Positions 5,978 through 63,737 of a DNA stretch of 64,000 bases are shown here, one piece after another. The notes under the pieces were generated by a model. The model ran no database searches, was not told where the DNA came from, and saw only the letters and a program-made list of their open reading frames with translations. The DNA is from an uncultured virus (IMG/VR IMGVR_UViG_3300042564_001198) (lineage: Duplodnaviria > Heunggongvirae > Uroviricota > Caudoviricetes), in the IMG/VR virus record IMGVR_UViG_3300042564_001198, one strand, 5' to 3'. Made by a program: the position numbers and the translations under genes. Positions within the stretch are counted from its first letter, which is position 1, and each line of letters begins with the position of its first letter.

Positions 5978-6792
5978 AAAAGTATTTCTGTGAATGGTGT
6001 GGCACTGAGCATTTTAAACCACGCTCTAGGTTTTGTTCGGATGAGTGCAGATCACTATATAGAAAATCAAAACCTAACCCCTGTCTTGGTAGAAAACAAT
6101 CAAAAGAGACAATAGAGAAAAGGATAAGGAATACAGACCAGAAAGCAAAACAAGCAAAGTTGAGATCCACTATGCTTGAGAGGTATGGTGTAGAAAATGT
6201 AGCACAATTGCTTGAAGTAAAAGAAGCTATTTCTTTAGCTGCTAAAAATAGACCAAAAGACCCAAGAAGTGCAGAACATAGTAAGAAGATTGCCGAAAAC
6301 AGGAAAATAAATGGCACTAATAAACATACTCAAAAGACCAAAGATTGGTTAAGAGAGACTATGCTAAGACGTTACTCTGACCCAGATTTAGATAGGAGTA
6401 TTCACGTTGCAGTTGATATAAAATCTTGGCACAAGAGCGGCAGGGTTGACGCTATCTACTTCAGGTCATCTTATGAGGAAAAATTCTTGTTGTTTTGTAA
6501 AAAGTTTAATATTGAGGTAATATCAGCAGCGAATAAAGAATTTGCAGTGCCTTACATGGCCGCTGATGGGAGAATTCACCATTACTTTCCGGATTTTTAT
6601 TTACCTAATTACCATACAATAGTGGAAATAAAACCTATCTCACTTTTAAATGTATATCCGAATGATGTAAAGATTGATGCTGGATTGAAACATCACGAAA
6701 ACTTTGTTATACTCACTGAAATAGATGATTTCTTCGATGAGGTAACTTGGCAACCTTTCTACGAAGAAATAGTAAATAATTGGATTAAATAA
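5974..6792 (+). CDS. Free-standing homing-type endonuclease: Zn finger + basic repeats + TnsA-N-like PD-(D/E)xK domain
   Basis: CEWC...FCSDEC; RSSYE...HYFPDF...IVEIKP. Confidence 0.75.
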   Translation: MKKYFCEWCGTEHFKPRSRFCSDECRSLYRKSKPNPCLGRKQSKETIEKRIRNTDQKAKQAKLRSTMLERYGVENVAQLLEVKEAISLAAKNRPKDPRSAEHSKKIAENRKINGTNKHTQKTKDWLRETMLRRYSDPDLDRSIHVAVDIKSWHKSGRVDAIYFRSSYEEKFLLFCKKFNIEVISAANKEFAVPYMAADGRIHHYFPDFYLPNYHTIVEIKPISLLNVYPNDVKIDAGLKHHENFVILTEIDDFFDEVTWQPFYEEIVNNWIK

Positions 6793-37705: not shown

Positions 37706-38517
37706 TAGAAATTACACTCCCATACAGTTCCTGTCCATGTGAATACAAAACGGGAATTTGTGTCTAATACAAAAGAGTCATAATCCGCTGCGTCAGCAGC
37801 ACTATTACCAACTCTAATTTGTTCAGTAGCAATATTATTACATTGGACTGTTACTACATTACCTGAAGCTTTATATACTTCTACTTTACTGCCAGCAGCT
37901 AAGCCGGAGATAGAAGGTAATGTTTGTGTAGTGTTGCCAGTAACAATATTATTCTCACCGACAATCAATGCACCTGAAGTAGACAATACTTTAGCAAGAC
38001 TAAACATCTGCTGAACTGTTCTACCGCCAGTTGTGTCAATAGATGACGCTGGGTGAGCGTTAGGATCTGACCTAAAGGTCAGTCCTCTGTGGTCAAAAGC
38101 AGGGGCATCAGAATTGATTACAGTTGTCATTGCGGTGTTATCAAGTTTTACCCTGATAGTACCAACATAAGTGAAACCATATTCTGTTGTCGGTGTTTGA
38201 ATTACTTGGTTGTTAATTGTACCGTAAGCAATCAAAACACCAGTACTATCATAGATGCCAACTTCACGTAATGTTACACCACCGAACGTTCTCGGAATGT
38301 ACCCACTTACTGCAATCACTGTGGGGTCTGCAGTATCTTTAATTGGATTAGAGCAATTAACCCTAATTACTTCATTTACCAGAGATGTTCTGGTAGGGTC
38401 AACGGCAGGGAGAGACCCACTGCCGTCACCAAATGCCATACTTAAAAGAGTAACAGGCGCCATTGGAGTGGCTACTAATAATTTAGCCCTACCTACATCT
38501 GTTAAAATTGTAGCCAT
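37705..38517 (-). CDS. Tail fibre protein (P2 gpH/DUF3751-like N-terminus)
   Basis: ILTDVGRAKL...AFGDG...LVNEV...GGVTLREVG. Confidence 0.85.
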   Translation of the reverse strand: MATILTDVGRAKLLVATPMAPVTLLSMAFGDGSGSLPAVDPTRTSLVNEVIRVNCSNPIKDTADPTVIAVSGYIPRTFGGVTLREVGIYDSTGVLIAYGTINNQVIQTPTTEYGFTYVGTIRVKLDNTAMTTVINSDAPAFDHRGLTFRSDPNAHPASSIDTTGGRTVQQMFSLAKVLSTSGALIVGENNIVTGNTTQTLPSISGLAAGSKVEVYKASGNVVTVQCNNIATEQIRVGNSAADAADYDSFVLDTNSRFVFTWTGTVWECNF

Positions 38518-42902: not shown

Positions 42903-42911
42903 TATAGACCC

Positions 42912-43103
42912 TTAGATGATGGGCCACTGCCCTGCTGAGCTACCGCCAGTAACATTTGCTTTGGCGTTATCTTTGATGTGATTAACAATAGCGGAGGCTA
43001 AAGCGTCAATAACGGAATCATTTGTGATTTCTCCATTATCAACATCAATAGCATTTACTGCGGATTTGATTGCAGCAGCAAGAGATGAAGCACTCATTGC
43101 CAT
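42912..43103 (-). CDS. Small spike-associated protein
   Basis: 63 aa after the spike gene. Confidence 0.6.
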   Translation of the reverse strand: MAMSASSLAAAIKSAVNAIDVDNGEITNDSVIDALASAIVNHIKDNAKANVTGGSSAGQWPII

Positions 43104-43150
43104 TCTAAGTCTCCTAATATATTAAAGCCATTGGCTTATTTTGTCAACAG

Positions 43151-45209: not shown

Positions 45210-45844
45210 TAACCTGCTCCTGTGATACCATCAGGTAATCTCGCACCACCCAACCACTTATTAATTTGTTCTTCAGGTAATACCGCATCCGCACCGGCCC
45301 GAAATAAACTTTCAGGTTTAGTATTAGACTTACTACCGCTGTCTTTCTTTCCAGCAAGTGCATCAGCTTTAGCTTTTTCTGCGTTTACTGTATCATCAGA
45401 AGATTCCCCAGCTACTTCAACTAAAGAAGCTTTAGCTTTGTCTACGATACGTACTTGTTCAATTGACATATTAATACGCCAACTCCCAAGCCCTTCAACA
45501 ACACCTTTCTGTCCACTGAAGTCTGTAAACAAACAGTTCTTGTATGGAGATAAACGGTTGTCTAAGAACACCGTAAATAGTTCACGAGATTTACGTAAAG
45601 TATCTAAACCTTGAATGTAATCTTTGATACCTTTCTGTGGAGAGTTCTTAGTGAGATTGACAACTTCAGTGATCACACCAGATAATGTAAACGTAGAATT
45701 TTCAACAACAGAATGATCTGTAATAGAAGCCCCCGATTCAACGGGGAACTTCGTATTAGTATTTCTATGTTGAAACCCTACATCAGTGGTGGCTGTCAAT
45801 TCAAAGACATCACCAGCTTTTGTTTTGATGTAGAATACAGCCAT
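45209..45844 (-). CDS. Tail tube initiator / Dit-like protein
   Basis: TKFPVESGASITDH...LSGVI. Confidence 0.75.
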   Translation of the reverse strand: MAVFYIKTKAGDVFELTATTDVGFQHRNTNTKFPVESGASITDHSVVENSTFTLSGVITEVVNLTKNSPQKGIKDYIQGLDTLRKSRELFTVFLDNRLSPYKNCLFTDFSGQKGVVEGLGSWRINMSIEQVRIVDKAKASLVEVAGESSDDTVNAEKAKADALAGKKDSGSKSNTKPESLFRAGADAVLPEEQINKWLGGARLPDGITGAG

Positions 45845-46873
45845 TACCTTACTCCAACAGATTGCATGCCAGTCATACGCTCTAATTCCTTCTTCACACT
45901 TTCACCAGCTTTTTCTGGGTCAGGTGAATTGATTGTGATACTGATATTACCACCAACAGTATTTTGTGAATACCAAGATGTAAAGTCTTTCAATCCAGCC
46001 ATAGTATAATCGAAGGATGTTTTAGCAAAACCTTCCAGTGCCGAAAGTATTACTGAACCGTGTTCTGTCTGAGAAGCAACGGGCATATTCTTAGCGATGT
46101 CTTGCCCAAATTGAGCTAATGGCCCTACTGTGAAATCACCGCCAACAAGTTTAGCGTCTTCAGCACTACCCATACCCATCATCATTCGTCGTTGGGCGTG
46201 TACTTTCTTACTCTTTTCTTCAGACCAACCCTTATCATCAAACAAACCAACTACATCATCATCAAAGTATGCTCTGATTTCATCAAGTACACCTACGATT
46301 GTAGTCAGAATAACGAGAGGTGTTTTGAAAGCAGCAGCCATCACTAAACCTAAATTCTTCATATTAGTAATCAGAATAGGCATAGCCACTATTAAAGCCG
46401 CCAGAGGGTTATCAACAAACCATCCTATTGCCTGACCTACCGTTTCTACAGAACGTAAGAAAGAAGCAAACCATTGTGTAGCACCTCTCACTACAACTGA
46501 CAGTACATCAAACACTTTCTTGTATATTCTGCCAAGACGCTGTAGTGTATCTTCATTATTGTTAACCAGATCAGTTATTGTTTTGAAGAAGTTTTTCAGA
46601 CCTTCAGTAAAACCACCTTTATCTAAGTTCTCAGCAGCAGTTACAGAGAAAGCTGCTTTCATTCTGTTCTCTACAATACCAAGCTTATCAAGAGATTTAG
46701 TATAAGCGTCATTGACGTTTACCAACTTCTCCATTTGTAATACGAACGGAAGAATATATTCGGCACCAAGTTGTCCTTGCTCCATCATTTTAAACAACTC
46801 TTTAGCTGTTTTACCTGTGGATTTTTCTAAGGCTCTCATTGCTATTGGTAATCTGTCGCCTAGCTGTTCTTTA
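45844..46873 (-). CDS. Tape measure protein, exon 2
   Basis: Begins (T)-KEQLGDRLPIAMRAL...LFKMMEQGQL. Confidence 0.9.
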
Positions 46874-47030
46874 CATTATGTTCAGGAAGGGTCGTTAACC
46901 CTTCCCCGCTTTATTCAAGCTGCTTACAGTCTCCTGTAAGATCAGACCATATCTTCACCTTCAACTTAATGTTAAGGGTTCCCCATTTCGACTCACTTGA
47001 GTCTACGTCTTTCGACTGGCCGTTGAACGT

Positions 47031-47735
47031 TCAGAAAAATTCATCAGAAATGTTTTTATAACGAATCTTATATCTAATTCGTTTTATCTCTATCGTACTG
47101 AGCTTGTCATTGCTACTGAGTTTCGCAATTTCTTTATCACCCAATCCGTCTAAAATTCTATAACAAACCCACTTGACAGTATTCACAGAGAAGTCATTGG
47201 GATAGTTATGTTCTATTTTGTAAAGCTGCCTTATGTGGAAGTAACAGTCGCCGGCACGTATCAATCTTATAACACCTTTGGATGTGTTAACTTCCTTAGC
47301 TATATCACAGATTCTGTGTCCGTTGACAAGCATTTGACAAACTTTATGTACAGCGTCTTCAGTTAGACTCGCATTGTATAAGTCTGAGCCTTTACCTTTA
47401 AGTCCTGTAGAAACTGCGTGTCGTTGATTTTGACTGGCTGTTACCCACTCAAGGTTTTCAACGTTATTGTTTAAAGAGTTACCGTCTTTGTGGTTGACTT
47501 GCAGCTTTTTGTCTGGACAACCTTGCCATGCTTCAAGAACTAATCTGTGTACTTTTCTATTGTACACGACACCTTCTACGGACAATCTCACATAACAACT
47601 AGGATAATTATTTATCACCTTAATTGATTGTGCGATCTCTTTGTTTCTTTTTATATTAAAAACTTTACCACAAGCACTTACTGCATAATTTGGGTAATCT
47701 TTCAATACTATAACTTTTATCTTATTTACAAACAT
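47031..47735 (-). CDS. Intron-encoded NUMOD4-HNH homing endonuclease
   Basis: YPNYAVS..GKV, KVHRLV, VNHKDGNSLNNNVENLEWVT..QN..HA; AGGAG RBS. Confidence 0.92.
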   Translation of the reverse strand: MFVNKIKVIVLKDYPNYAVSACGKVFNIKRNKEIAQSIKVINNYPSCYVRLSVEGVVYNRKVHRLVLEAWQGCPDKKLQVNHKDGNSLNNNVENLEWVTASQNQRHAVSTGLKGKGSDLYNASLTEDAVHKVCQMLVNGHRICDIAKEVNTSKGVIRLIRAGDCYFHIRQLYKIEHNYPNDFSVNTVKWVCYRILDGLGDKEIAKLSSNDKLSTIEIKRIRYKIRYKNISDEFF

Positions 47736-47836
47736 TTCTGCTCCTACTGATTTTCAGAGAATTTTCTGCTTCGCTGCGGATTGTCTCTATTGTTGACGTT
47801 TTTACCATCACAAACACATTACTGTTTGCTTTGTAT

Positions 47837-47864
47837 ATTATACACGGTAGTCAACACCTGTCAA
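47837..47864 (-). promoter_or_regulatory. Consensus sigma70 promoter inside the intron, upstream of the HNH ORF
   Basis: TTGACA-N16-TATAAT. Confidence 0.6.
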
Positions 47865-47927
47865 GATTTCCCCGCAATTAAAGGAATATATTTTTCTGCA
47901 CATTTCTATGCAGCGAACCTAATTTTA

Positions 47928-57167: not shown

Positions 57168-57691
57168 TTAATTTCCTGCCCGTAAGCTTCACAATAAACG
57201 CTCAAGCCTGTGAACGTACCATCCTTCACTTTAGGCCAAATTACATCTTCAGCTAATTCATCTGGTTCAGGGAAGTACCATTCTTGCAACCAAGTGTTCT
57301 TGCGAATAGTCACTTGCTCACCTTCTGGATTCTCGATAATAAATTCAACTGGAGAAGTATAAGACTGCTCGATAATGGCTAAGTCAGAATCAAGCATTAC
57401 GCTGTGCATCAGATTAGCTTTCATGCAGTGAACGTTGAATGAGCGACAAGCTTCGATAACGTCTTGGTCAAAGTAAACATCACCATGTAAGTCTTCTGTT
57501 TCTGCCTCAGACTCTTGTGGAGCTAATACAACGAACAATGCTCGACGTTCTTCAACGTCCACAGACTTACGTACCTGAACACCTTCTGGTGTAGTGACAT
57601 CGCTCTCAATAACTTGCTTATGGTTTTCACTATCACCGATAGCCATGTCCAACAAGTCAGTAAACATTTTGATTAGTTTTTCTTTGTTCAT
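57164..57691 (-). CDS. Prohead serine protease (XkdF-like)
   Basis: DLHGD, NLMH, TW, VKDGTFTGLSV. Confidence 0.85.
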   Translation of the reverse strand: MNKEKLIKMFTDLLDMAIGDSENHKQVIESDVTTPEGVQVRKSVDVEERRALFVVLAPQESEAETEDLHGDVYFDQDVIEACRSFNVHCMKANLMHSVMLDSDLAIIEQSYTSPVEFIIENPEGEQVTIRKNTWLQEWYFPEPDELAEDVIWPKVKDGTFTGLSVYCEAYGQEIK

Positions 57692-58440
57692 GCAGAATTT
57701 GCCATATTTCTTGTAGAGTTAGGATTCTTCAACTGACTTGTACCTGTACCACTAGAACCACCACTCTCACCAACACGGGCTGTGTCAGGGGTGAGCTTAG
57801 CTAACAGTTCTTCTTCAGTGAGCTTCTCGATCTCTGTTGTATCGAACCCAGTCATCTTGTGTGCTTGAATAATGATTGACTTATCTTTAACCATCATACC
57901 AACACCAGCCATCAACTGAACCACTTTAGCATTGTTCTCTGGGTCAGCTTCATCCAGCTCACCAAACGTCATCACTGGCATATCATCTTCTTCAAGTTTC
58001 AGTTCATTAATGTCTGCAAGAGACTTAACAAACTCACGCTCAAATACTGTTTTAATATACATCAGCATACGTTCCATGTAGAAAGCATGGACACTGCGAG
58101 AACTATCTGATAGACTGTGTGAACCTGTATCACCTTGACCAACCAGAAGGAAGGAAGCACCTAATACGTTAAGAATATCTTTCTTACGAGCTTCGATTAG
58201 TTCAGAGGTTTTATAGGCTTTACTGCCACCATCGACACCCTTCAGTTCAACATCGTAAACGTATTTACCGTTACCTGTTTCACCATGTGTATCTGATCCT
58301 AAGAGGATATATGTTTGATCGCCAGCATGAATAGCAGCAGCATTCTTTTGTAATGCTCTGAGTGTTTTTGCTTCTAAGCTCTGATCATCTTCAGCAGCTT
58401 TATTGATGTGGTCATTCGGGACACGTAATACAAGGACACC
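57688..58440 (-). CDS. Portal protein, exon 2
   Basis: GVLVLRVP...ILNVLGASFLLVG...GSHSLS. Confidence 0.9.
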   Translation of the reverse strand, partial: GVLVLRVPNDHINKAAEDDQSLEAKTLRALQKNAAAIHAGDQTYILLGSDTHGETGNGKYVYDVELKGVDGGSKAYKTSELIEARKKDILNVLGASFLLVGQGDTGSHSLSDSSRSVHAFYMERMLMYIKTVFEREFVKSLADINELKLEEDDMPVMTFGELDEADPENNAKVVQLMAGVGMMVKDKSIIIQAHKMTGFDTTEIEKLTEEELLAKLTPDTARVGESGGSSGTGTSQLKNPNSTRNMANSA

Positions 58441-58696
58441 CATTTGTTCAAAGTGAGTCGTTAATTCACTCCAGCGACATTATTCGCTTCTCTATGTTTC
58501 CATAAAGTTCAGACTATATCTTCATCCTATAAGGATGCTTCCCATTTCGAGCTACTTAGCCCTACGGCTTACGCCTAGTCGTTACACGTTCTCATTACTG
58601 AGCTTCGCTCGGTATTGTCTCCAACATTACTTGGTAAGAGTTTCACCGAATTAGAAAAGTTATTCAATGTGCATTACTACACAAGGGGGCAGTTCT
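58441..58696 (-). ncRNA. Group I intron (256 nt, ORF-less) in portal gene
   Basis: P1 GGGU/GCCC; P AAUUCGGUGAA, Q CAAUACCGAGC, R AACGACUA, S AAGAUAUAGUCU; terminal G; splicing restores SKDLG|GVLVLR, 505 aa. Confidence 0.93.
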
Positions 58697-59461
58697 ACCC
58701 AAGTCCTTGCTCACCCCAACAACCTCATAGCTTGTAATCATTTCAAGCTCTTTCCAAGATTTAAAGCAGTCGTATAGATCTGATTTACCTTGAGGGTTGT
58801 TACCTGTACTGTTCCAACTAAACAACATAAACTTTTCTCTACGAACAAATTTATCTGTTAAGTTTTGTACAGTGAAAGGGTTGATATTACTTTGTCCAAT
58901 AACTGTAGCTGGCATCCATTGATGTAAACCAACTAAGTCTCGCTTCAATACAGCATCATCAAACACCCACTCACGAACACTCTTTTGAGCGCGAGGAGCA
59001 AGCTTTGCGTATTTGTATTTATATTTACCAGACCACTTAATACTATCATTCTTTGCAAAGACTTTCTCAAGCCAAGCGAATCCATATTTACGGAATGTGA
59101 TAATATTTGTGATGGCATCGTACCAACTGTTACCGACGAAGTTCTTGATGTTCCAGTTGAGGAAGGCAGCAAAATCTTTTGACTCTTGACTTCCTGATAC
59201 ACCTGCGATAAACTTTGTAGCAAGTAGGGACTTCGTAAGGAATACTTCACCAGCGGTTAAGCCTTGGCTAACAGCAGAGGTAGAAGCCATCTTATCGTAT
59301 GTGGTGAGGCTATGAGGAAACTGCAATTCTTTCTTAGCAGATTCTTCAATGTAGCCCCCGATGGCTTTTAGATATGGATTGCCGATCTCCCCTAAGCGAA
59401 GACGACTGTCTGAGCTAGAGGGATTAGATTCAGCTTTCTCAATTTGAATTGTTTCTGACAT
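58697..59461 (-). CDS. Portal protein, exon 1
   Basis: LGEIG, YGFAWLEKV, KLAPR.Q, NPQG.S.L. Confidence 0.9.
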
Positions 59462-59473
59462 TATCCCCTCAGA

Positions 59474-60940
59474 TTATGAATTAAGGTCATATTGCGCTTT
59501 GATTGTGGGATCGTTGAGAGCGGTTAGTTTTGGGACTGTGTAAGTTTTGACACGGCACAGGAAATTAAAACAATCTGCTGTTGTATCAACCCAATCATCT
59601 TTGATTTTTCTGCTGCTGCGCCACTTACCGTCTTCGTTTGGTTGAAATTGTTCAAGCTCTCTGTAGAAAGCATTCAGCGTCCTAGTATCAGGAAAACTAT
59701 CTTCTACTATAAACACCAGACCAGATTGTGCCGCAGATAAGAAAGGTTCAAAGCGAGAAGATTTACTTCTTGTACCAGATGCGGCAGAAGGGTATATTTT
59801 AAATCCTTCGGCAACAAACTTCTTGGCAATCTCTTGAAACACTTGCTTTCCGTCTGCTCCGGCATCCTGAGCTAATACTACTTTAGTCTCTCTACCATCA
59901 TGTTTGGCTTGCAGTAGCATTAATTGGTCTCGCTCACCGGCAGCTTTTCTAAACTTCCCATAAACTTGTTCGTGTTCATCGAAAGTAGTTTTAGCAAAGT
60001 CACCATATATGTAGTAAAATCCATTACTGTCTTTAGCCATGTGAATACAAGCGGTAAAGTCTGCGTCTGTATTTTTAATCTTAGGACTATACTCTGTGTT
60101 AGCTTTATCCCAAGCTACTACTCTTTGACAACCTTCCGGTAAGGATTTTTTGACCCTTTCCCCATGTTGTCCCCTGAGCCATTTTCTGTCGAAGAATTTT
60201 ATCTTGTCACTCTCGCTGTGCCAATTTCCGAAAAGCTGGCTGGCTCTTTCATGCTCAGGTAAATTTTGAAGTTCAGACAGATAGCGCGGGTTGAGTCGGA
60301 TGAGTATTGGGTTATCAAAAATTGTTAGTTGCACAAAGCAAAACTTTTTAGGTGGTACATACATTTGCTCATTAGTGGACGGGTTGGTTATATACACCGT
60401 CTCCGGCATGTTTTCACTAAACCATTCTTCACTATCGGCAAATATAAAGTCATTATCTTTTACTACGTACCAACGAATTTGTCCATTCTTAGCCTTATCA
60501 ACAAAACCCTCATCATCGAGATACCACTTAACTAGGTCATATACCCAGTTCTCCCTGTGGGGGTTACACGTTCCGATGCAAACAGAGTTCATGTTCGCTT
60601 CCGAGCGCAAAGTTGTAAGTAAAAATAAAAGAGCCTCTTTCGGGACTTGGGTGATTTCATCCACACCCAAATAGCTAAGTTGCAAGCCGCGCATTTTTTC
60701 AGCGTCAGAAAGATTTGAAATAGCTTTGTATCGAATCTTACAACCAGAAGGAAATTGATAATATGGTGGTGGAGATTTGATAGGTCTTGCACCAAGGAGA
60801 GGGTAGTATTTGTATGCAGTCTCCCACAAACCACCAGCACCTGTCAATTGGTCATACTGAACACGGACAAACATTCCGTTGAATCGTGGATCATCTCGCC
60901 ACATTAGAGGTATCTGAGTTATTACTTCAGACTTGCCGCC
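59474..60940 (-). CDS. terL: Terminase large subunit, exon 2
   Basis: GGKS, Walker B GVDE, GTCNP, AWD.A, DD.VD nuclease motifs. Confidence 0.93.
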   Translation of the reverse strand, partial: GGKSEVITQIPLMWRDDPRFNGMFVRVQYDQLTGAGGLWETAYKYYPLLGARPIKSPPPYYQFPSGCKIRYKAISNLSDAEKMRGLQLSYLGVDEITQVPKEALLFLLTTLRSEANMNSVCIGTCNPHRENWVYDLVKWYLDDEGFVDKAKNGQIRWYVVKDNDFIFADSEEWFSENMPETVYITNPSTNEQMYVPPKKFCFVQLTIFDNPILIRLNPRYLSELQNLPEHERASQLFGNWHSESDKIKFFDRKWLRGQHGERVKKSLPEGCQRVVAWDKANTEYSPKIKNTDADFTACIHMAKDSNGFYYIYGDFAKTTFDEHEQVYGKFRKAAGERDQLMLLQAKHDGRETKVVLAQDAGADGKQVFQEIAKKFVAEGFKIYPSAASGTRSKSSRFEPFLSAAQSGLVFIVEDSFPDTRTLNAFYRELEQFQPNEDGKWRSSRKIKDDWVDTTADCFNFLCRVKTYTVPKLTALNDPTIKAQYDLNS

Positions 60941-61150
60941 CAAGTCTCAGTTATGTGTTCGCTAGGCACTTCCACCGTTTCCGGTGTTGTCGGACTATAT
61001 CTTATGCAATAAAGCATCCCTACGTTTTCATGTCGCTTGACATTACTTTAGTCTCTACACCCACGAATCTAATCGTTCGGCTCGGTATTGCCCTCGTCTA
61101 TACGTTAGGGTTTCACCGACTTAGCAGGGTTACGTGGCAGCGGTCTATTT
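60941..61150 (-). ncRNA. Group I intron (210 nt, ORF-less) in terL
   Basis: P1 CGUGGU/GCCACG; P AAGUCGGUGAA, Q CAAUACCGAGC, R GAGACUA, S AAGAUAUAGUCC; terminal G; splicing restores Walker A GGSRG|GGKS, 535 aa. Confidence 0.93.
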
Positions 61151-61291
61151 ACCACGCGAACCACCGATGATCATGAAATCTACTTCGGTAGCTCTTTTGA
61201 ATACAAGTTCTTGCATTGGAGAACAAGGTCCAATCTCTACAATCTCTTTTGGAGGAGCCTTGTTCGTTACTTTAGGTCTTTTGTTACTCAT
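61151..61291 (-). CDS. terL: Terminase large subunit, exon 1 (47 codons; absent from ORF track)
   Basis: AGGAG RBS; MSNKRPK...IGPCSPMQE...DFMIIGGSRG. Confidence 0.9.
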
Positions 61292-61343
61292 ATTTCTCCT
61301 TTTTTATAATGCACTAATTAAATGCACTATAGAAAAGAGCCAG

Positions 61344-62306
61344 CTATAAAAGCTGGTCTTCATATTCATACACTATAGATAATATCTTAGATAAATTAGA
61401 GAGGTACGTTGTCTCTACATAACCGTGCTTCATATCTACTTTCGAAACTACCTTTCTTATAATATCTTTACTTCTGTAGACTTTATTCTCAATGTCCAGT
61501 GCTGTATAACCACTAGCAAAATTGAACAAATACATAGGCTCTATATCAAAGGTAGAGTAGCGTCTGATTTCCTTCAAACGCCTTTCCATATTATTTGTAA
61601 CACCAAACTTTATAACATCGTCAGTTACTTTAAGTATGTAGAATGTTCCTGATTTCTGTGGTTGAAAACCACTTCCACCACATAGAGGACAACCTTTACC
61701 TTGAACATGATTGTCTGGTGTTATACTAAATTCACCATGTGTAGGGCAGGTGACAATCACTTTTTGTTTACAGTTCTTGAATTCTGAAACAGTAGAATAG
61801 TCGTATAAATCGCCGTGAACTGCTTTGAATTTAAGAATATAACTTTCACGACCTTTGTTGTGAAGATGACCTTTTCTTATATTGAAGCAACTTGGACAAC
61901 CATGCCCAGACATTAAATTATTTGGCTTTGCTCTGAAAGTATGACCTTCCTTACAAGTCACCTCTATGTGTACAGAAGCTCTCTCGTATTTTGCATTACT
62001 AAAATCAAAACCATGTGCAGGGAATTTAGCGTCCAACTTTTTAATAAACTCGTGCAGATTACTTGAAGCCACTTTAGATTTATATTCTCTTAGGCAGTCA
62101 CAGCATCCAATCCCACCTAACATCATTGATTGAGCATCTTGCCAATATGTGTTGCCGTGCTTGATACAAGTCACTTCGCACTTCTCGTGCTGAGTCAGGT
62201 AAACAAGGTTAGAATAGTCTAACTCTATTTTCTGGTTCTCTTTACATTTTTCAATAAATTGTTCTTGTGTAAGACGACGATATTTACCTTTCCGCTTCTC
62301 TTTCAA
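61344..62306 (-). CDS. Free-standing endonuclease: three Zn-ribbon repeats + C-terminal GIY-YIG-superfamily domain
   Basis: 3x F..K...DYS......VTC..HG.......G.GC..C; FYILK....IKFGVTN...RRL. Confidence 0.8.
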   Translation of the reverse strand: MKEKRKGKYRRLTQEQFIEKCKENQKIELDYSNLVYLTQHEKCEVTCIKHGNTYWQDAQSMMLGGIGCCDCLREYKSKVASSNLHEFIKKLDAKFPAHGFDFSNAKYERASVHIEVTCKEGHTFRAKPNNLMSGHGCPSCFNIRKGHLHNKGRESYILKFKAVHGDLYDYSTVSEFKNCKQKVIVTCPTHGEFSITPDNHVQGKGCPLCGGSGFQPQKSGTFYILKVTDDVIKFGVTNNMERRLKEIRRYSTFDIEPMYLFNFASGYTALDIENKVYRSKDIIRKVVSKVDMKHGYVETTYLSNLSKILSIVYEYEDQLL

Positions 62307-62329
62307 TTTAAAATCCTATTAATCAAATA

Positions 62330-62960
62330 CTCCCCGCGCATTGGCGCGGGTCTGTTCACAAACCCAGCACAGAGAATATTTGTTAATAGAATCTCTGTGA
62401 ACAATTTTTCGTGCCGAAGCACCAAGCCACGCCAATAGCCTGTACAACAAAATGAAATAACCAACGTACTTACGCAGAGGTTGGTTACATATTATAAGGC
62501 TTCAATGAGCCAAACAACTTAAGTGCTTTTAAGCAATAACAGATTAACGGACTGCTCTAAGTGCCCCAACGACACATTCCGTCGATTGTTTCACTTTATT
62601 TATACACGTTAACCGTAGCCATCGATAGCATCAATCGTGTTATATCTATCCCACAATTAAACTTTTACTCCCCACGAGGGAAACCTTATTACAGGGAAGT
62701 AGGCAACCTAAACAGTCCAGCTCTAATTGCTCTATGTGTAGGGTTGGGTCAGCCTTTTTGTTAACACCGGTATTCATTCCTAGTGGAATCTACAGAATGC
62801 TAAATTAGGGAGTCTGCCGCTACCAGACCAACACATTATTCACTCTTATAGTTGTCCATGTGTTATGGCGCTTGCACGGATTCCATCTGTATTTAAAGCC
62901 CTAGGGAACGTATTCGAGGGCTATCAGCAAACCACATCCCATGTGAGGATGCTGAATTCT
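62330..62960 (-). ncRNA. Candidate large structured non-coding RNA (~630 nt), family unassigned
   Basis: No credible ORF in a gene-dense late operon; about ten local hairpins incl. a cUUCGg loop, plus nested long-range helices. Confidence 0.7.
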
Positions 62961-62968
62961 TTTAAATA

Positions 62969-63085
62969 TTAAGGACCAACAATATCCACATCTAACCAAC
63001 CATCATTAATTACTGGAGGCCACTCATCAGAGATACCTTCACCATAACCAACGTCAAGGTCTAAACCCCAATCTTGTTCTTTCAT
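62969..63085 (-). CDS. Small acidic protein (38 aa)
   Basis: AAGGAGG RBS; MKEQDWGLDLDVGYGEGISDEWPPVINDGWLDVDIVGP. Confidence 0.6.
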   Translation of the reverse strand: MKEQDWGLDLDVGYGEGISDEWPPVINDGWLDVDIVGP

Positions 63086-63094
63086 AATTCCTCC

Positions 63095-63541
63095 TTATGA
63101 TTTCTTAGCTTTAGCAGCAGCCTTCTTCACAACAGGCTTAGCTTCTTGAACAGGGGCTTCTACTGTTGTGTCAACCACTACTTCCGTAGCCTGTTCTGCT
63201 TCAATTGTAGCTGCTTCTACTACGTCTGTCAAATCTTTTTCGATTACAGACATCATAAATACATACTTTCTATCGAAGATAAATGTTACACGAAGTAATG
63301 TGCTAACAATACTACGAATATCATCTTCTGTCAAATCTTTTGCATTGGCTACAACGTAATCTACTACTTCATGTAACTGAGCAAATCGAATAGTATTACC
63401 ACCAACACTATAATCGGTGCTAACATTGGTAAACATTTTTCCATTAATTTCTTTCCAGAAATCAGCATATGTTCCATTCTTCACTGCTTCATAAATTGCT
63501 GGCAAGAAGCTACTCACGCCATGATAAGTTAAATTCTTCAT
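63095..63541 (-). CDS. Hypothetical protein with Lys/Ala-rich tail
   Basis: 148 aa. Confidence 0.8.
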   Translation of the reverse strand: MKNLTYHGVSSFLPAIYEAVKNGTYADFWKEINGKMFTNVSTDYSVGGNTIRFAQLHEVVDYVVANAKDLTEDDIRSIVSTLLRVTFIFDRKYVFMMSVIEKDLTDVVEAATIEAEQATEVVVDTTVEAPVQEAKPVVKKAAAKAKKS

Positions 63542-63570
63542 TGTGTTTCCTGTGTAAATTACATTCTCTT

Positions 63571-63634
63571 AAAAATAAAAGCCCCGTTACGACGAGGAGA
63601 GGTGTGCAGAGGAGGATGCACCATCGTAACGGGG
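63571..63634 (-). terminator. Long-stem terminator-like hairpin with anti-SD loops
   Basis: CCCCGTTACGA...TCGTAACGGGG followed by CTTTTATTTTT on minus. Confidence 0.6.
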
Positions 63635-63737
63635 AAGGAGGGAACACATCACTGTGTTTTATTTTAATCGCTACCTTATGGTGATAGCTGGAGGAGAGAA
63701 GTAATGAAAATTGGTTACTTGCGGGAATGTAATTGAA

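Follow-up and report, generated by a model that had tools for sequence, protein, structure and literature searches.

What does a phage keep in a long, hairpin-rich gap directly in front of a nuclease gene? We addressed this question for an uncultured virus of the Caudoviricetes (IMG/VR record IMGVR_UViG_3300042564_001198), of which a stretch of 64,000 nucleotides (nt), here called the window, was analysed. The gap lies at 62307-62968 (662 nt, with the minus strand as sense) and has no credible open reading frame (ORF) from the stop codon of an ORF of 38 amino acids (aa) (62969) to the TTG start of the nuclease gene (62306). A sequence-only reading had proposed that the gap encodes one ornate RNA of about 630 nt. 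Our analysis favours a composite instead: a spacer or 3' untranslated region (3'-UTR), a terminator, and an operator with several states that controls translation of a free-standing homing endonuclease. We regard this explanation as reasonably probable.

The evidence comes from a comparison of related loci. A protein search with p148, the product of a 148-aa ORF upstream of the gap, gathered eight loci: two identical to the window, the equivalent pair L006 and L009, L007 (which ends at a contig end), L008, L010 and L011. All full-length relatives have the same order of p148, a short conserved element (block A), a non-coding stretch, a nuclease homologue, a terminator and terL. The non-coding stretch measures 280 nt in L011, 309 nt in L008, 375 nt in L006, 658 nt in the window and 738 nt in L010. 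Five variants of the leader in front of the nuclease gene were available, from the window, L006 (=L009), L008, L010 and L011. The A4 alignment puts the S helix of the window out of register, and helices were therefore checked in each sequence. The leader contains the following elements, including the Shine-Dalgarno (SD) sequence of the nuclease gene.

62423-62442, minus strand: hairpin C, with a stem of 5 base pairs (bp) and a conserved 10-nt loop, UAUUGGCGUG
62411-62422, minus strand: hairpin V, GUGC-UUCG-GCAC, variable
62402-62410, minus strand: conserved GAAAAAU(AA)UUG, directly after hairpin V
62367-62399, minus strand: hairpin D, with arms CACAGAGA (62392-62399) and UCUCUGUG (62368-62375)
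62367-62395, minus strand: strand S5 of the SD helix, overlapping hairpin D
62333-62350, minus strand: hairpin E, CCCGCGC-CAAU-GCGCGGG, carrying the segment CGCCAA
62310-62339, minus strand: strand S3 of the 29-bp helix, containing the SD sequence AGGA at 62314-62317
62304-62306, minus strand: start codon UUG

We found that the SD sequence is buried in a long helix in all five variants. In the window this helix has 29 bp, with seven G.U pairs, one bulge and an energy of -33.6 kcal/mol; the 24-bp helix of relatives has a duplex energy of -24.3 kcal/mol. Over the variants it spans about 23-29 bp, its strands lie about 27-44 nt apart, S5 is about 30-60 nt upstream, and S3, which contains the SD sequence, ends 3-6 nt before the TTG start. 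Both the minimum free energy structure and the partition function pair the SD sequence. The mean probability that positions -14 to -5 are unpaired is 0.005 in the window and 0.15-0.23 in the relatives, and of 64 window genes folded in this way the nuclease gene has the least accessible SD (the median is 0.49 and the next lowest value 0.12). Comparison of the L006 type with L011, read strand by strand, revealed no broken pair: both partners differ in four pairs and one partner in two, and RNAalifold reported double changes in 12 of 37 pairs. In L008 the outer helix GAGAUGU/ACAUCUC becomes GAGGUGU/ACACCUC, a compensatory change. The sequence of the SD helix in the window is unrelated to that of the relatives, still with 29 bp. 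The late (minus) strand had been taken as sense throughout the gap; for 62304-62538 the UUCG and GNRA loops and the G.U pairs in covarying helices bear this out.

The leader can also form alternative pairings. In four of the five variants S5 folds as the local hairpin D when S3 is left out. Since D and the S helix share bases, they are mutually exclusive, and one A-to-G change in L011 is matched in both alternative partners. All five pairs of hairpin C form in every variant, with compensatory changes from CAGGC/GCCUG to ACGGG/UCCGU. Its loop can pair over 8-11 bp with the CGCCAA segment of hairpin E, again in five of five (-11.4 to -17.6 kcal/mol). This segment is invariant (CGCCGA in L010) and lies in the 5' arm or the loop of E, the 3' arm of which varies. 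Hairpin E itself looks like a terminator stem and gives weak look-alike matches to the Rfam families Leu_leader and OmrA-B. At the position of hairpin V, L006 and L008 have a hairpin with a GAAA tetraloop, and L010 and L011 a longer one.

These features could be read differently. The conserved core might be a new RNA switch that responds to a ligand or a protein and times the synthesis of the nuclease, built like a riboswitch from an aptamer and an expression platform. It would consist of hairpin C with its loop, the GAAAAAUAAUUG segment, the CGCCAA pseudoknot partner, the bistable D/S pair and possibly block A, and the nuclease could be the effector by autoregulation. About 45 nt in loops and junctions are invariant while stems covary or are swapped, the loop-to-arm pairing is kept throughout, both mutually exclusive helices are maintained by coordinated changes, tetraloop hairpins are exchanged at one position, and Rfam has no match. 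Like translational riboswitch platforms and SD pseudoknots, the leader has mutually exclusive helices, one of them hiding the SD sequence, and a conserved loop in a pseudoknot-type pairing. In addition, PMC2988022 describes I-TevI as autoregulating its own expression. Unlike riboswitches, however, the leader has no known aptamer in Rfam, no sign of a ligand and a very narrow distribution. The comparison comprises just five sequences of three types from one phage group, the genomic context suggests no effector, and a folding intermediate would suffice to explain the alternative hairpin. Furthermore, similarity between the leader and the flanks of the terL exon junctions did not exceed that of shuffled sequences, so an I-TevI-style operator mimic was not found there. 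We consider such a switch unlikely. An extended form of the idea takes the roughly 190 nt common to the variants (block A, the terminator-like hairpin, C, CGCCAA and D/S) as an undescribed RNA switch that would sense an infection-stage signal and open a brief period of nuclease synthesis, with part of the spacer (M1) as a separate small RNA ending at block A. This signal could be a protein, possibly the nuclease or one involved in packaging, or else a metabolite or RNase III. This version we find equally doubtful.

The distribution of the leader was then considered. A covariance model of the leader found only its five training sequences among 76 sources and none at the 71 other loci with homologous nucleases, where a motif search agreed. 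The pattern ATTGGCGTG...GAAAAAT occurred in at least 116 stretches in IMG/VR; among the matches listed, extended similarity was confined to L065, L067 and L101, all of them known contigs. Judged by these searches, the leader belongs to this locus in this phage group, and neither to the nuclease family at large nor to the terL lineage.

The gene behind the leader was examined at the protein level. The nuclease consists of repeated Zn-finger modules and a C-terminal T5orf172/MUG113 (GIY-YIG-like) domain. In Pfam, DUF4379 (9.6e-07) and DUF723 (3.2e-04) score above their cut-offs, and CapR (0.0029; 18.2 versus 24.2 bits) and MUG113 (0.0092; 17.0 versus 22.3 bits) below theirs; PHROG 681, 'endonuclease', matches at 9.5e-64. 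Homologues at the same locus are 30-31% identical in aa sequence and conserve the Cys pairs and a G..Y.LK...K.G.TNN..R motif. The call of the catalytic domain is moderately, though not strongly, supported by these matches, and the proposal of a Zn-ribbon/GIY-YIG-type nuclease has thus held up. The suggestion that the neighbouring RNA is a partner of this nuclease survives in a narrower sense, as a cis-regulatory leader; we saw no sign of a guide function. An RNA that programs the nuclease in trans, as an analogue of omega-RNA or bridge RNA, would be supported only by the conserved loops and by the position of a structured RNA beside a nuclease gene. The nuclease has its own repeated Zn-finger modules, which are typical of protein-only T5orf172 homing endonucleases (PMC10448857), its homologues at the 71 other loci are without the RNA, the best-supported helix acts on the SD sequence of the gene itself, and neither HEARO nor other Rfam families match. 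We therefore give a guide RNA next to no credence.

We next considered the gap as a whole. With a threshold of at least 70 aa, the largest ORF-free interval of the window is indeed here (62307-63094, 788 nt, including the 38-aa ORF), as the sequence-only reading had noticed; with a threshold of 60 aa, a 67-aa antisense ORF divides it. None of 17 stop-free frames (seven from the window and ten from relatives) matched Pfam at E<=0.1, so no hidden protein remnants were detected in these frames. An Rfam cmscan of 60800-63700 at E<=10, with ROOL, GOLLD and HEARO among the families, found nothing in the gap beyond terminator look-alikes (Leu_leader, 18.6 bits, E 1.5; OmrA-B, 16.8 bits, E 8.2), and at gathering scores the sole match in the entire window was a group I intron outside the gap. 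No Rfam family was found in the gaps of the relatives at E<=0.1, no tRNA or tmRNA by a search of the region, no tandem array by Tandem Repeats Finder in 62250-63100 at scores of at least 30, and no blastn match of the 662-nt gap among 50,697 phage records. The absence of tRNA, tmRNA and group I and II intron signatures, which had been noticed from the letters, was thereby confirmed for the gap.

Three candidates for the identity of the gap were set aside. A group I intron would interrupt a gene, and no gene is interrupted here, since each upstream ORF is closed by a stop codon and terL starts with an SD sequence of its own; RF00028 gave no match in the gap at E<=10, while the same search recovered the intron of terL (47.7 bits). 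For a group II intron no model matched at E<=10, and hairpin B, described below, has its internal loop on the 5' side and no AGC triad. In type III toxin-antitoxin systems, ToxI repeats are followed by a terminator and ToxN. The locus resembles this layout in having a structured RNA, a terminator-like hairpin and a nuclease gene in order; unlike it, there are no tandem repeats upstream of the nuclease gene, and the nuclease is of the DNA homing-endonuclease type.

Folding statistics separated the gap into unequal parts. The whole minus strand folds at -207.7 kcal/mol versus -175.0+-8.0 for 20 shuffled sequences (z -4.1), and the plus strand likewise folds better than shuffles (z -3.9). Scores of sub-regions (100 shuffles each, in leader coordinates) were -2.5 for 1-46, -0.5 for 47-207 (module M1), +0.2 for 208-324 (M2), -1.1 for 325-430 (M3), -3.65 for 431-517 (M4) and -6.9 for 515-662. 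The overall score is thus due to the last 148 nt, the 87-nt module that ends in hairpin B, and the first 46 nt, whereas the middle 384 nt (47-430, about 58% of the stretch) fold no better than shuffles, an outcome that the sequence-only reading had itself listed as refuting its proposal. We counted 558 helices of at least 6 bp in the whole gap, compared with 480+-22 in 15 shuffled sequences; within 47-430 there were 137 versus 127+-10.5, and ten of at least 9 bp versus 6.5+-3.1 (20 shuffles). By chance, a sequence of this size and composition should contain about 480 helices of at least 6 bp and about 30 of at least 9 bp. The local hairpins listed from the letters are all present where they had been placed. 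The four nested long-range helices on the minus strand that had been proposed as well are complementary, four of four, but occur at chance frequency, and the segments that they join are missing or replaced in relatives.

The spacer accounts for most of the unstructured part.

62539-62921, minus strand: spacer, with modules M1 (62762-62922), M2 (62645-62761) and M3 (62539-62644)

The spacer is neither conserved as a unit nor folded beyond shuffles. Besides the window type, only L007 has M1 (161 nt, 99.5% identity); L010 lacks it. L010 does have a version of M2 that is 72% alike, in which other hairpins take the place of the inner ones. M3 has no counterpart among the IMG/VR relatives, and contigs of relatives from sequencing runs cover part of it. 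L011 has about 14 nt instead of a 424-nt stretch (62498-62921), and the same joint was found in a lake metagenome run; L006 and L008 have unrelated sequence in place of the central spacer. No second copies of M1-M3 were found in the 93-kb virus record G001, and M1 and M2 were not found as dispersed elements at other IMG/VR loci. The spacer is specific to the lineage and prone to indels; most likely, it is 3'-UTR, or debris left by recombination where genetic exchange is frequent.

These results bear directly on the idea of one ornate RNA. If the entire 630-660 nt formed a single trans-acting molecule, of the ROOL/GOLLD kind or a packaging RNA, this would agree with the long ORF-free stretch and its overall folding score, with the many hairpins with UUCG or GNRA loops, with the presence of parts in RNA-library contigs of relatives and with the unusually good conservation of M1. 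Like ROOL, GOLLD and HEARO, the stretch is a long, hairpin-rich, non-coding piece of phage DNA. Unlike them, it gives no covariance-model match at E<=10, and most of its length is neither conserved nor folded above shuffles. A molecule of which the middle folds like shuffles, the long-range helices are at chance level and 424 nt are missing in L011 and unrelated in L006 and L008 is hard to reconcile with one functional unit, and terminator-like elements and the SD helix divide the stretch into cis-acting parts. We consider the single ornate RNA very unlikely. What stands of the proposed novel minus-strand RNA is a conserved, covarying leader of about 150 nt unmatched in Rfam, with covariation in the leader helices and a spacer that is absent or replaced in syntenic relatives.

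Between the spacer and the leader lies a structured module that ends in a terminator-like element.

62452-62538, minus strand: M4, three hairpins, the last being hairpin B; z -3.65
62458-62487, minus strand: hairpin B (UAACCAAC...GNRA...GUUGGUUA), followed by a U-rich tract at 62443-62457

M4 is common to the window, L010 (94% identical) and L011 (97%, last 75 nt). As read from the alignment, the five differences between the window and L010 fall in loops, at the N of GNRA (GUAA/GCAA/GAAA), or change A-U to G.U. A stable hairpin with a U-rich tail stands directly 5' of hairpin C in all five variants, but its sequence differs. The window and L011 have hairpin B there, L006 and L010 have a canonical terminator, CAGCCCC-GUUA-GGGGCUG, and L008 has a different hairpin.

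The gap is set in the late genes, which lie on the minus strand in the window, and its neighbours are as follows.

Upstream of p148, minus strand: 82-aa ORF, then a long terminator hairpin
63095-63541, minus strand: p148, 148-aa ORF of no family
62969-63085, minus strand: 38-aa acidic ORF with a strong GGAGG SD sequence
62307-62968, minus strand: the non-coding gap
61344-62306, minus strand: nuclease gene, 320 aa, TTG start
61340-61356, minus strand: terminator 3' of the nuclease gene, 6-bp stem, tail CTCTTTTCTA
61291 to 59474, minus strand: terL, with exon 1 from 61291, a group I intron at about 60971-61191 and exon 2 to 59474

A sharp mosaic boundary runs through this locus. The left flank is 87-95% identical in nt sequence among relatives, and on the other side terL is 32-39% and the nuclease about 30% identical in aa sequence. 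G001 (93,434 bp) shares 98% of sampled words with the window and contains the gap region at 100% identity. DNA matches to the locus in sequencing runs came from lake-water metagenomes. The window spans both ends of G001 (358-38210 and 38084-64000), with a 127-nt overlap at 38084-38210; from this arrangement the annotated 'direct terminal repeat' of G001 looks like the overlap of a circular or permuted assembly.

At the upstream end of the gap we found the most strongly conserved element.

62922-62964, minus strand: block A, 43 nt, with a stem-loop at 62925-62954

The stem-loop reads CAGCA, a 3x2 internal loop, CUCACAU-GGG-AUGUGG, and UGCUG, and block A always begins 0-10 nt after the stop codon of the upstream ORF. 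It is 100% identical over 38-43 nt in L006/L009, L007, L008 and L011 and 90% identical in L010, where the apical stem is shorter yet retained, whereas the coding DNA beside it is just 87-95% identical. By this measure block A appears to be constrained more strongly than the neighbouring coding DNA. It folds with z -2.5 on the minus and -3.6 on the plus strand; on the plus strand it is a hairpin followed by AAUUCUUUU, and as DNA it is a 30-bp near-palindrome with an EcoRI site. Block A might mark the 3' end or a processing site of an mRNA, bind a protein, terminate plus-strand transcripts or serve as a DNA site where the cassette begins or ends. A 17-mer of block A was found at 13 loci in IMG/VR, namely the eight known contigs and five without further similarity. 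In metagenome contigs its pattern gave two matches, L141 without related genes and L142, judged unrelated by eye only. A plus-strand small RNA ending at block A was also considered and rejected, for no plus-strand promoter-like site was seen in 62300-62960.

The conservation of block A raises the possibility that the locus is shaped by sites in DNA. Block A and the conserved stretch after the nuclease gene might be landing pads or recombination sites, pac-like sites, or binding sites of the nuclease or terminase that flank a swappable cassette, and the spacer would record the exchange. Consistent with this are the mosaic boundary, the identity of block A across otherwise diverged phages, the clean module-sized indels and the overlap of the window with both ends of G001, as in a circular or permuted assembly; moreover, nuclease genes mark boundaries of exchange in other phages, according to PMC10448857. 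However, the compensatory changes, the G.U asymmetry and the SD occlusion in 62304-62442 are signals at the RNA level that such sites leave unexplained. No empty site or target site is known, and blastn of the leader against the 93-kb genome gave no second copy of block A. We consider DNA-level sites a quite unlikely explanation of the locus.

On its downstream side the cassette adjoins terL. The nuclease gene ends 52 nt before terL exon 1 and is adjacent to, not within, the intron-containing gene; relatives have the same layout. The terL intron matches RF00028 with E 2.3e-10, below the gathering score of 50. It splits terL at the Walker A motif. Exon 1, of about 33 aa within 61145-61291, is easily missed and ends ...MIIGGSRGK*, and the exon 2 ORF (59474-60943) starts MGGKSEV and matches Terminase_6N/6C. 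The terL genes of relatives are likewise intron-split. Among the searched loci we found no relative without the intron or without the cassette.

Between the nuclease terminator and terL (61292-61339) lies a conserved promoter-like stretch with the terL SD sequence. The stem of the terminator differs in sequence in L011, while the downstream CUCUUUUCUAUAGUGCAUU...UAUAAAAAGGAG is conserved there, and L006, L008 and L010 have an analogous stretch. Here UAUAAAAA and the SD sequence are preceded by a duplicated motif, two copies of UAGUGCAUU in the window and two of AGUAUU in the L006 type. The counterparts of the stretch (L011 1850-1874; L006 5960-6008) are conserved even at 32% terL identity, and it may be a phage-specific promoter or operator of terL.

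Other introns were seen along the way. A group I intron at 58490-58710 (minus strand, 80.6 bits, E 6.9e-19) interrupts the portal gene, whose Portal_Mu-like halves lie at 58664-59461 and 57688-58443. At 46923-47087 (minus strand) a third match resembles a group I intron but stays under the gathering score (34.2 bits, E 5.3e-07), and the flanking ORFs, 45844-46839 and 47031-47735, may be two exons of one late gene. In relatives, terL contains two group I introns, of which the first sits at the Walker A position (37.5-39.5 bits) and the second further in (83-97 bits), at 6110-6335 and 6638-6886 in L006 and likewise in L008 and L010.

The leader has precedents in the control of homing endonuclease genes (HEGs). 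According to PMC2988022, stable structures sequester the ribosome-binding sites (RBSs) of T4 I-TevI, I-TevII, I-TevIII and segB and of Aeh1 mobE, late promoters bypass such structures, and terminators and RNase E sites lower HEG transcripts. As in those leaders, a very stable helix buries the SD sequence of a HEG among essential phage genes, and terminator-like elements surround the cassette, the downstream essential gene having its own promoter-like region here. Unlike those leaders as they are described there, ours has a long-range helix of 23-29 bp in place of a compact hairpin, a competing conserved hairpin with a loop/arm pseudoknot and a terminator in front, lies behind a non-coding stretch of 280-738 nt, and serves a T5orf172-type nuclease, not seg or mob. 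In place of a late promoter like that of T4 I-TevI, it has only a weak candidate site within S5.

The second precedent concerns the genes. In phage ICP1, a T5orf172 HEG stands beside the N-terminal exon of an intron-split terL, an arrangement read as collaborative homing (Barth, Dunham and Seed 2023, PMC10448857). Such HEGs carry repeated Zn fingers of the CapR/DUF723 type, as that paper shows. Here, too, a T5orf172-type nuclease with CapR/DUF723-like Zn fingers lies directly upstream of exon 1 of a group I-split terL at a mosaic boundary; unlike ICP1, the phages are of a different, uncultivated lineage from lake water. Because the T5orf172 HEG, the intron-split terL and the exchange boundary are all seen here too, we read the leader as a variant of the known RBS-sequestering control of HEGs. 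It differs in the length and long range of the helix, the competing hairpin, the loop/arm pairing and the terminator in front. In the literature we found no account of a comparable leader for T5orf172 HEGs, which is not proof of absence.

On the operator explanation, expression of the nuclease would proceed as follows. Transcripts of the p148 unit would run through block A and the spacer, and most would stop at the terminator-like hairpin, which would limit read-through. In transcripts that pass it, hairpin D would form first. The 13-16 nt loop of D is complementary to the centre of S3; S3 would nucleate there and displace the D stem, and the resulting duplex of 23-29 bp would lock away the SD sequence. 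If the C loop pairs with CGCCAA, hairpin E would open, and in the window its 3' arm would then be available to lengthen the duplex. Together with the weak TTG start, this would leave the nuclease, a potentially toxic selfish gene, nearly silent and insulated in the packaging operon. Escape could come from transcripts that start within S5, at a weak -10-like TATNNT, from a cut in the long duplex by RNase III, or from leakiness. The nuclease would home together with the terL intron. In this account the lack of coding potential, the modular conservation, the helices with their covariation, the computed burial of the SD sequence and the gene order are established, whereas termination, repression, its relief and joint homing are inferred.

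Several observations weigh against this explanation. The complete conservation of block A is not accounted for by a leader or operator, and covariation in the leader is drawn from three independent sequence types. Translational repression is predicted from modelled structures, and termination at hairpin B is a prediction as well; a simple terminator scan did not call this hairpin. No convincing promoter of the nuclease was found, with nine sites in the region compared with 8.0+-3.6 in shuffled sequences. In the window, a weak sigma-70-like TTCACA-17-TATTCT (62401..62373, 9/12) lies inside S5; the relatives have a -10-like TATNNT at the S5 site, and the -35 is not conserved.

The spacer gives further cause for caution. 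M1 is 99.5% identical in L007, compared with 94.9% for the flank, and in an RNA-library contig it has six differences in 225 nt, compared with 18 plus gaps in 259 nt of neighbouring coding DNA. M2 retains three sequence blocks in L010, and two spacer helices work only on the plus strand, GGUAUUC/GAAUGCU in M1 and a hairpin with a U-tail at 62740-62756. Some of the spacer may therefore be under constraint or have a function beyond what five sequences reveal. In two aquatic RNA libraries, contigs of relatives (90-95% alike) cover 62449-62668, 62739-62963 and p148; such contigs cannot show transcription, strand or ends and possibly stem from DNA carry-over, and the parts not covered are uninformative. 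They are the sole RNA-library data, and in running from p148 into the gap they are compatible with co-transcription but no proof of it.

The genes upstream of the gap gave some additional observations. The 148-aa protein had been called a probable terS, a call that we could not uphold: p148 has no Pfam family above cut-off (best, ArsA_ATPase, 17.8 versus 24.3 bits), no PHROG match and no ESM-Atlas lead, and its AlphaFold model has a predicted local distance difference test score of 46. The window and L008 have the 38-aa ORF and L010 has part of it; L006, L007 and L011 lack it, and in these three the stop codon of p148 directly adjoins block A. In the 196-nt gap 5' of p148 (63542-63737, minus strand), a long hairpin rich in GC ends in a canonical terminator (63582-63597 plus CUUUUAUUUU), and the SD sequence of p148 comes next. 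Within the p148 coding sequence there are strong sigma-70-like sites directed toward the gap (minus strand).

63232..63204, minus strand: TTGACA-17-TACAAT, 11/12
63306-63334, minus strand: TTGACA-17-TATTGT, 10/12

Comparable TTGACA/TATAAT pairs occur in other late intergenic regions, for example 47736-47905 and 42903-43150. Two tRNA genes lie about 2 kb upstream of p148 in relatives (L006 2185-2344; L010 1566-1726), and the window has none.

Together, these results turn a candidate giant RNA into a concrete, testable leader with a helix that buries the SD sequence, a competing hairpin and a pseudoknot-type pairing. They also illustrate that a long, ORF-free and hairpin-rich gap can be mostly unconstrained spacer. 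The leader sits at a selfish T5orf172 nuclease beside an intron-split terL, at a mosaic boundary. If the switch behaviour is true, the paradigm of homing-endonuclease silencing in T4 would extend to another nuclease family and to uncultivated freshwater phages, and the leader would be a natural, toehold-like translational off-switch.

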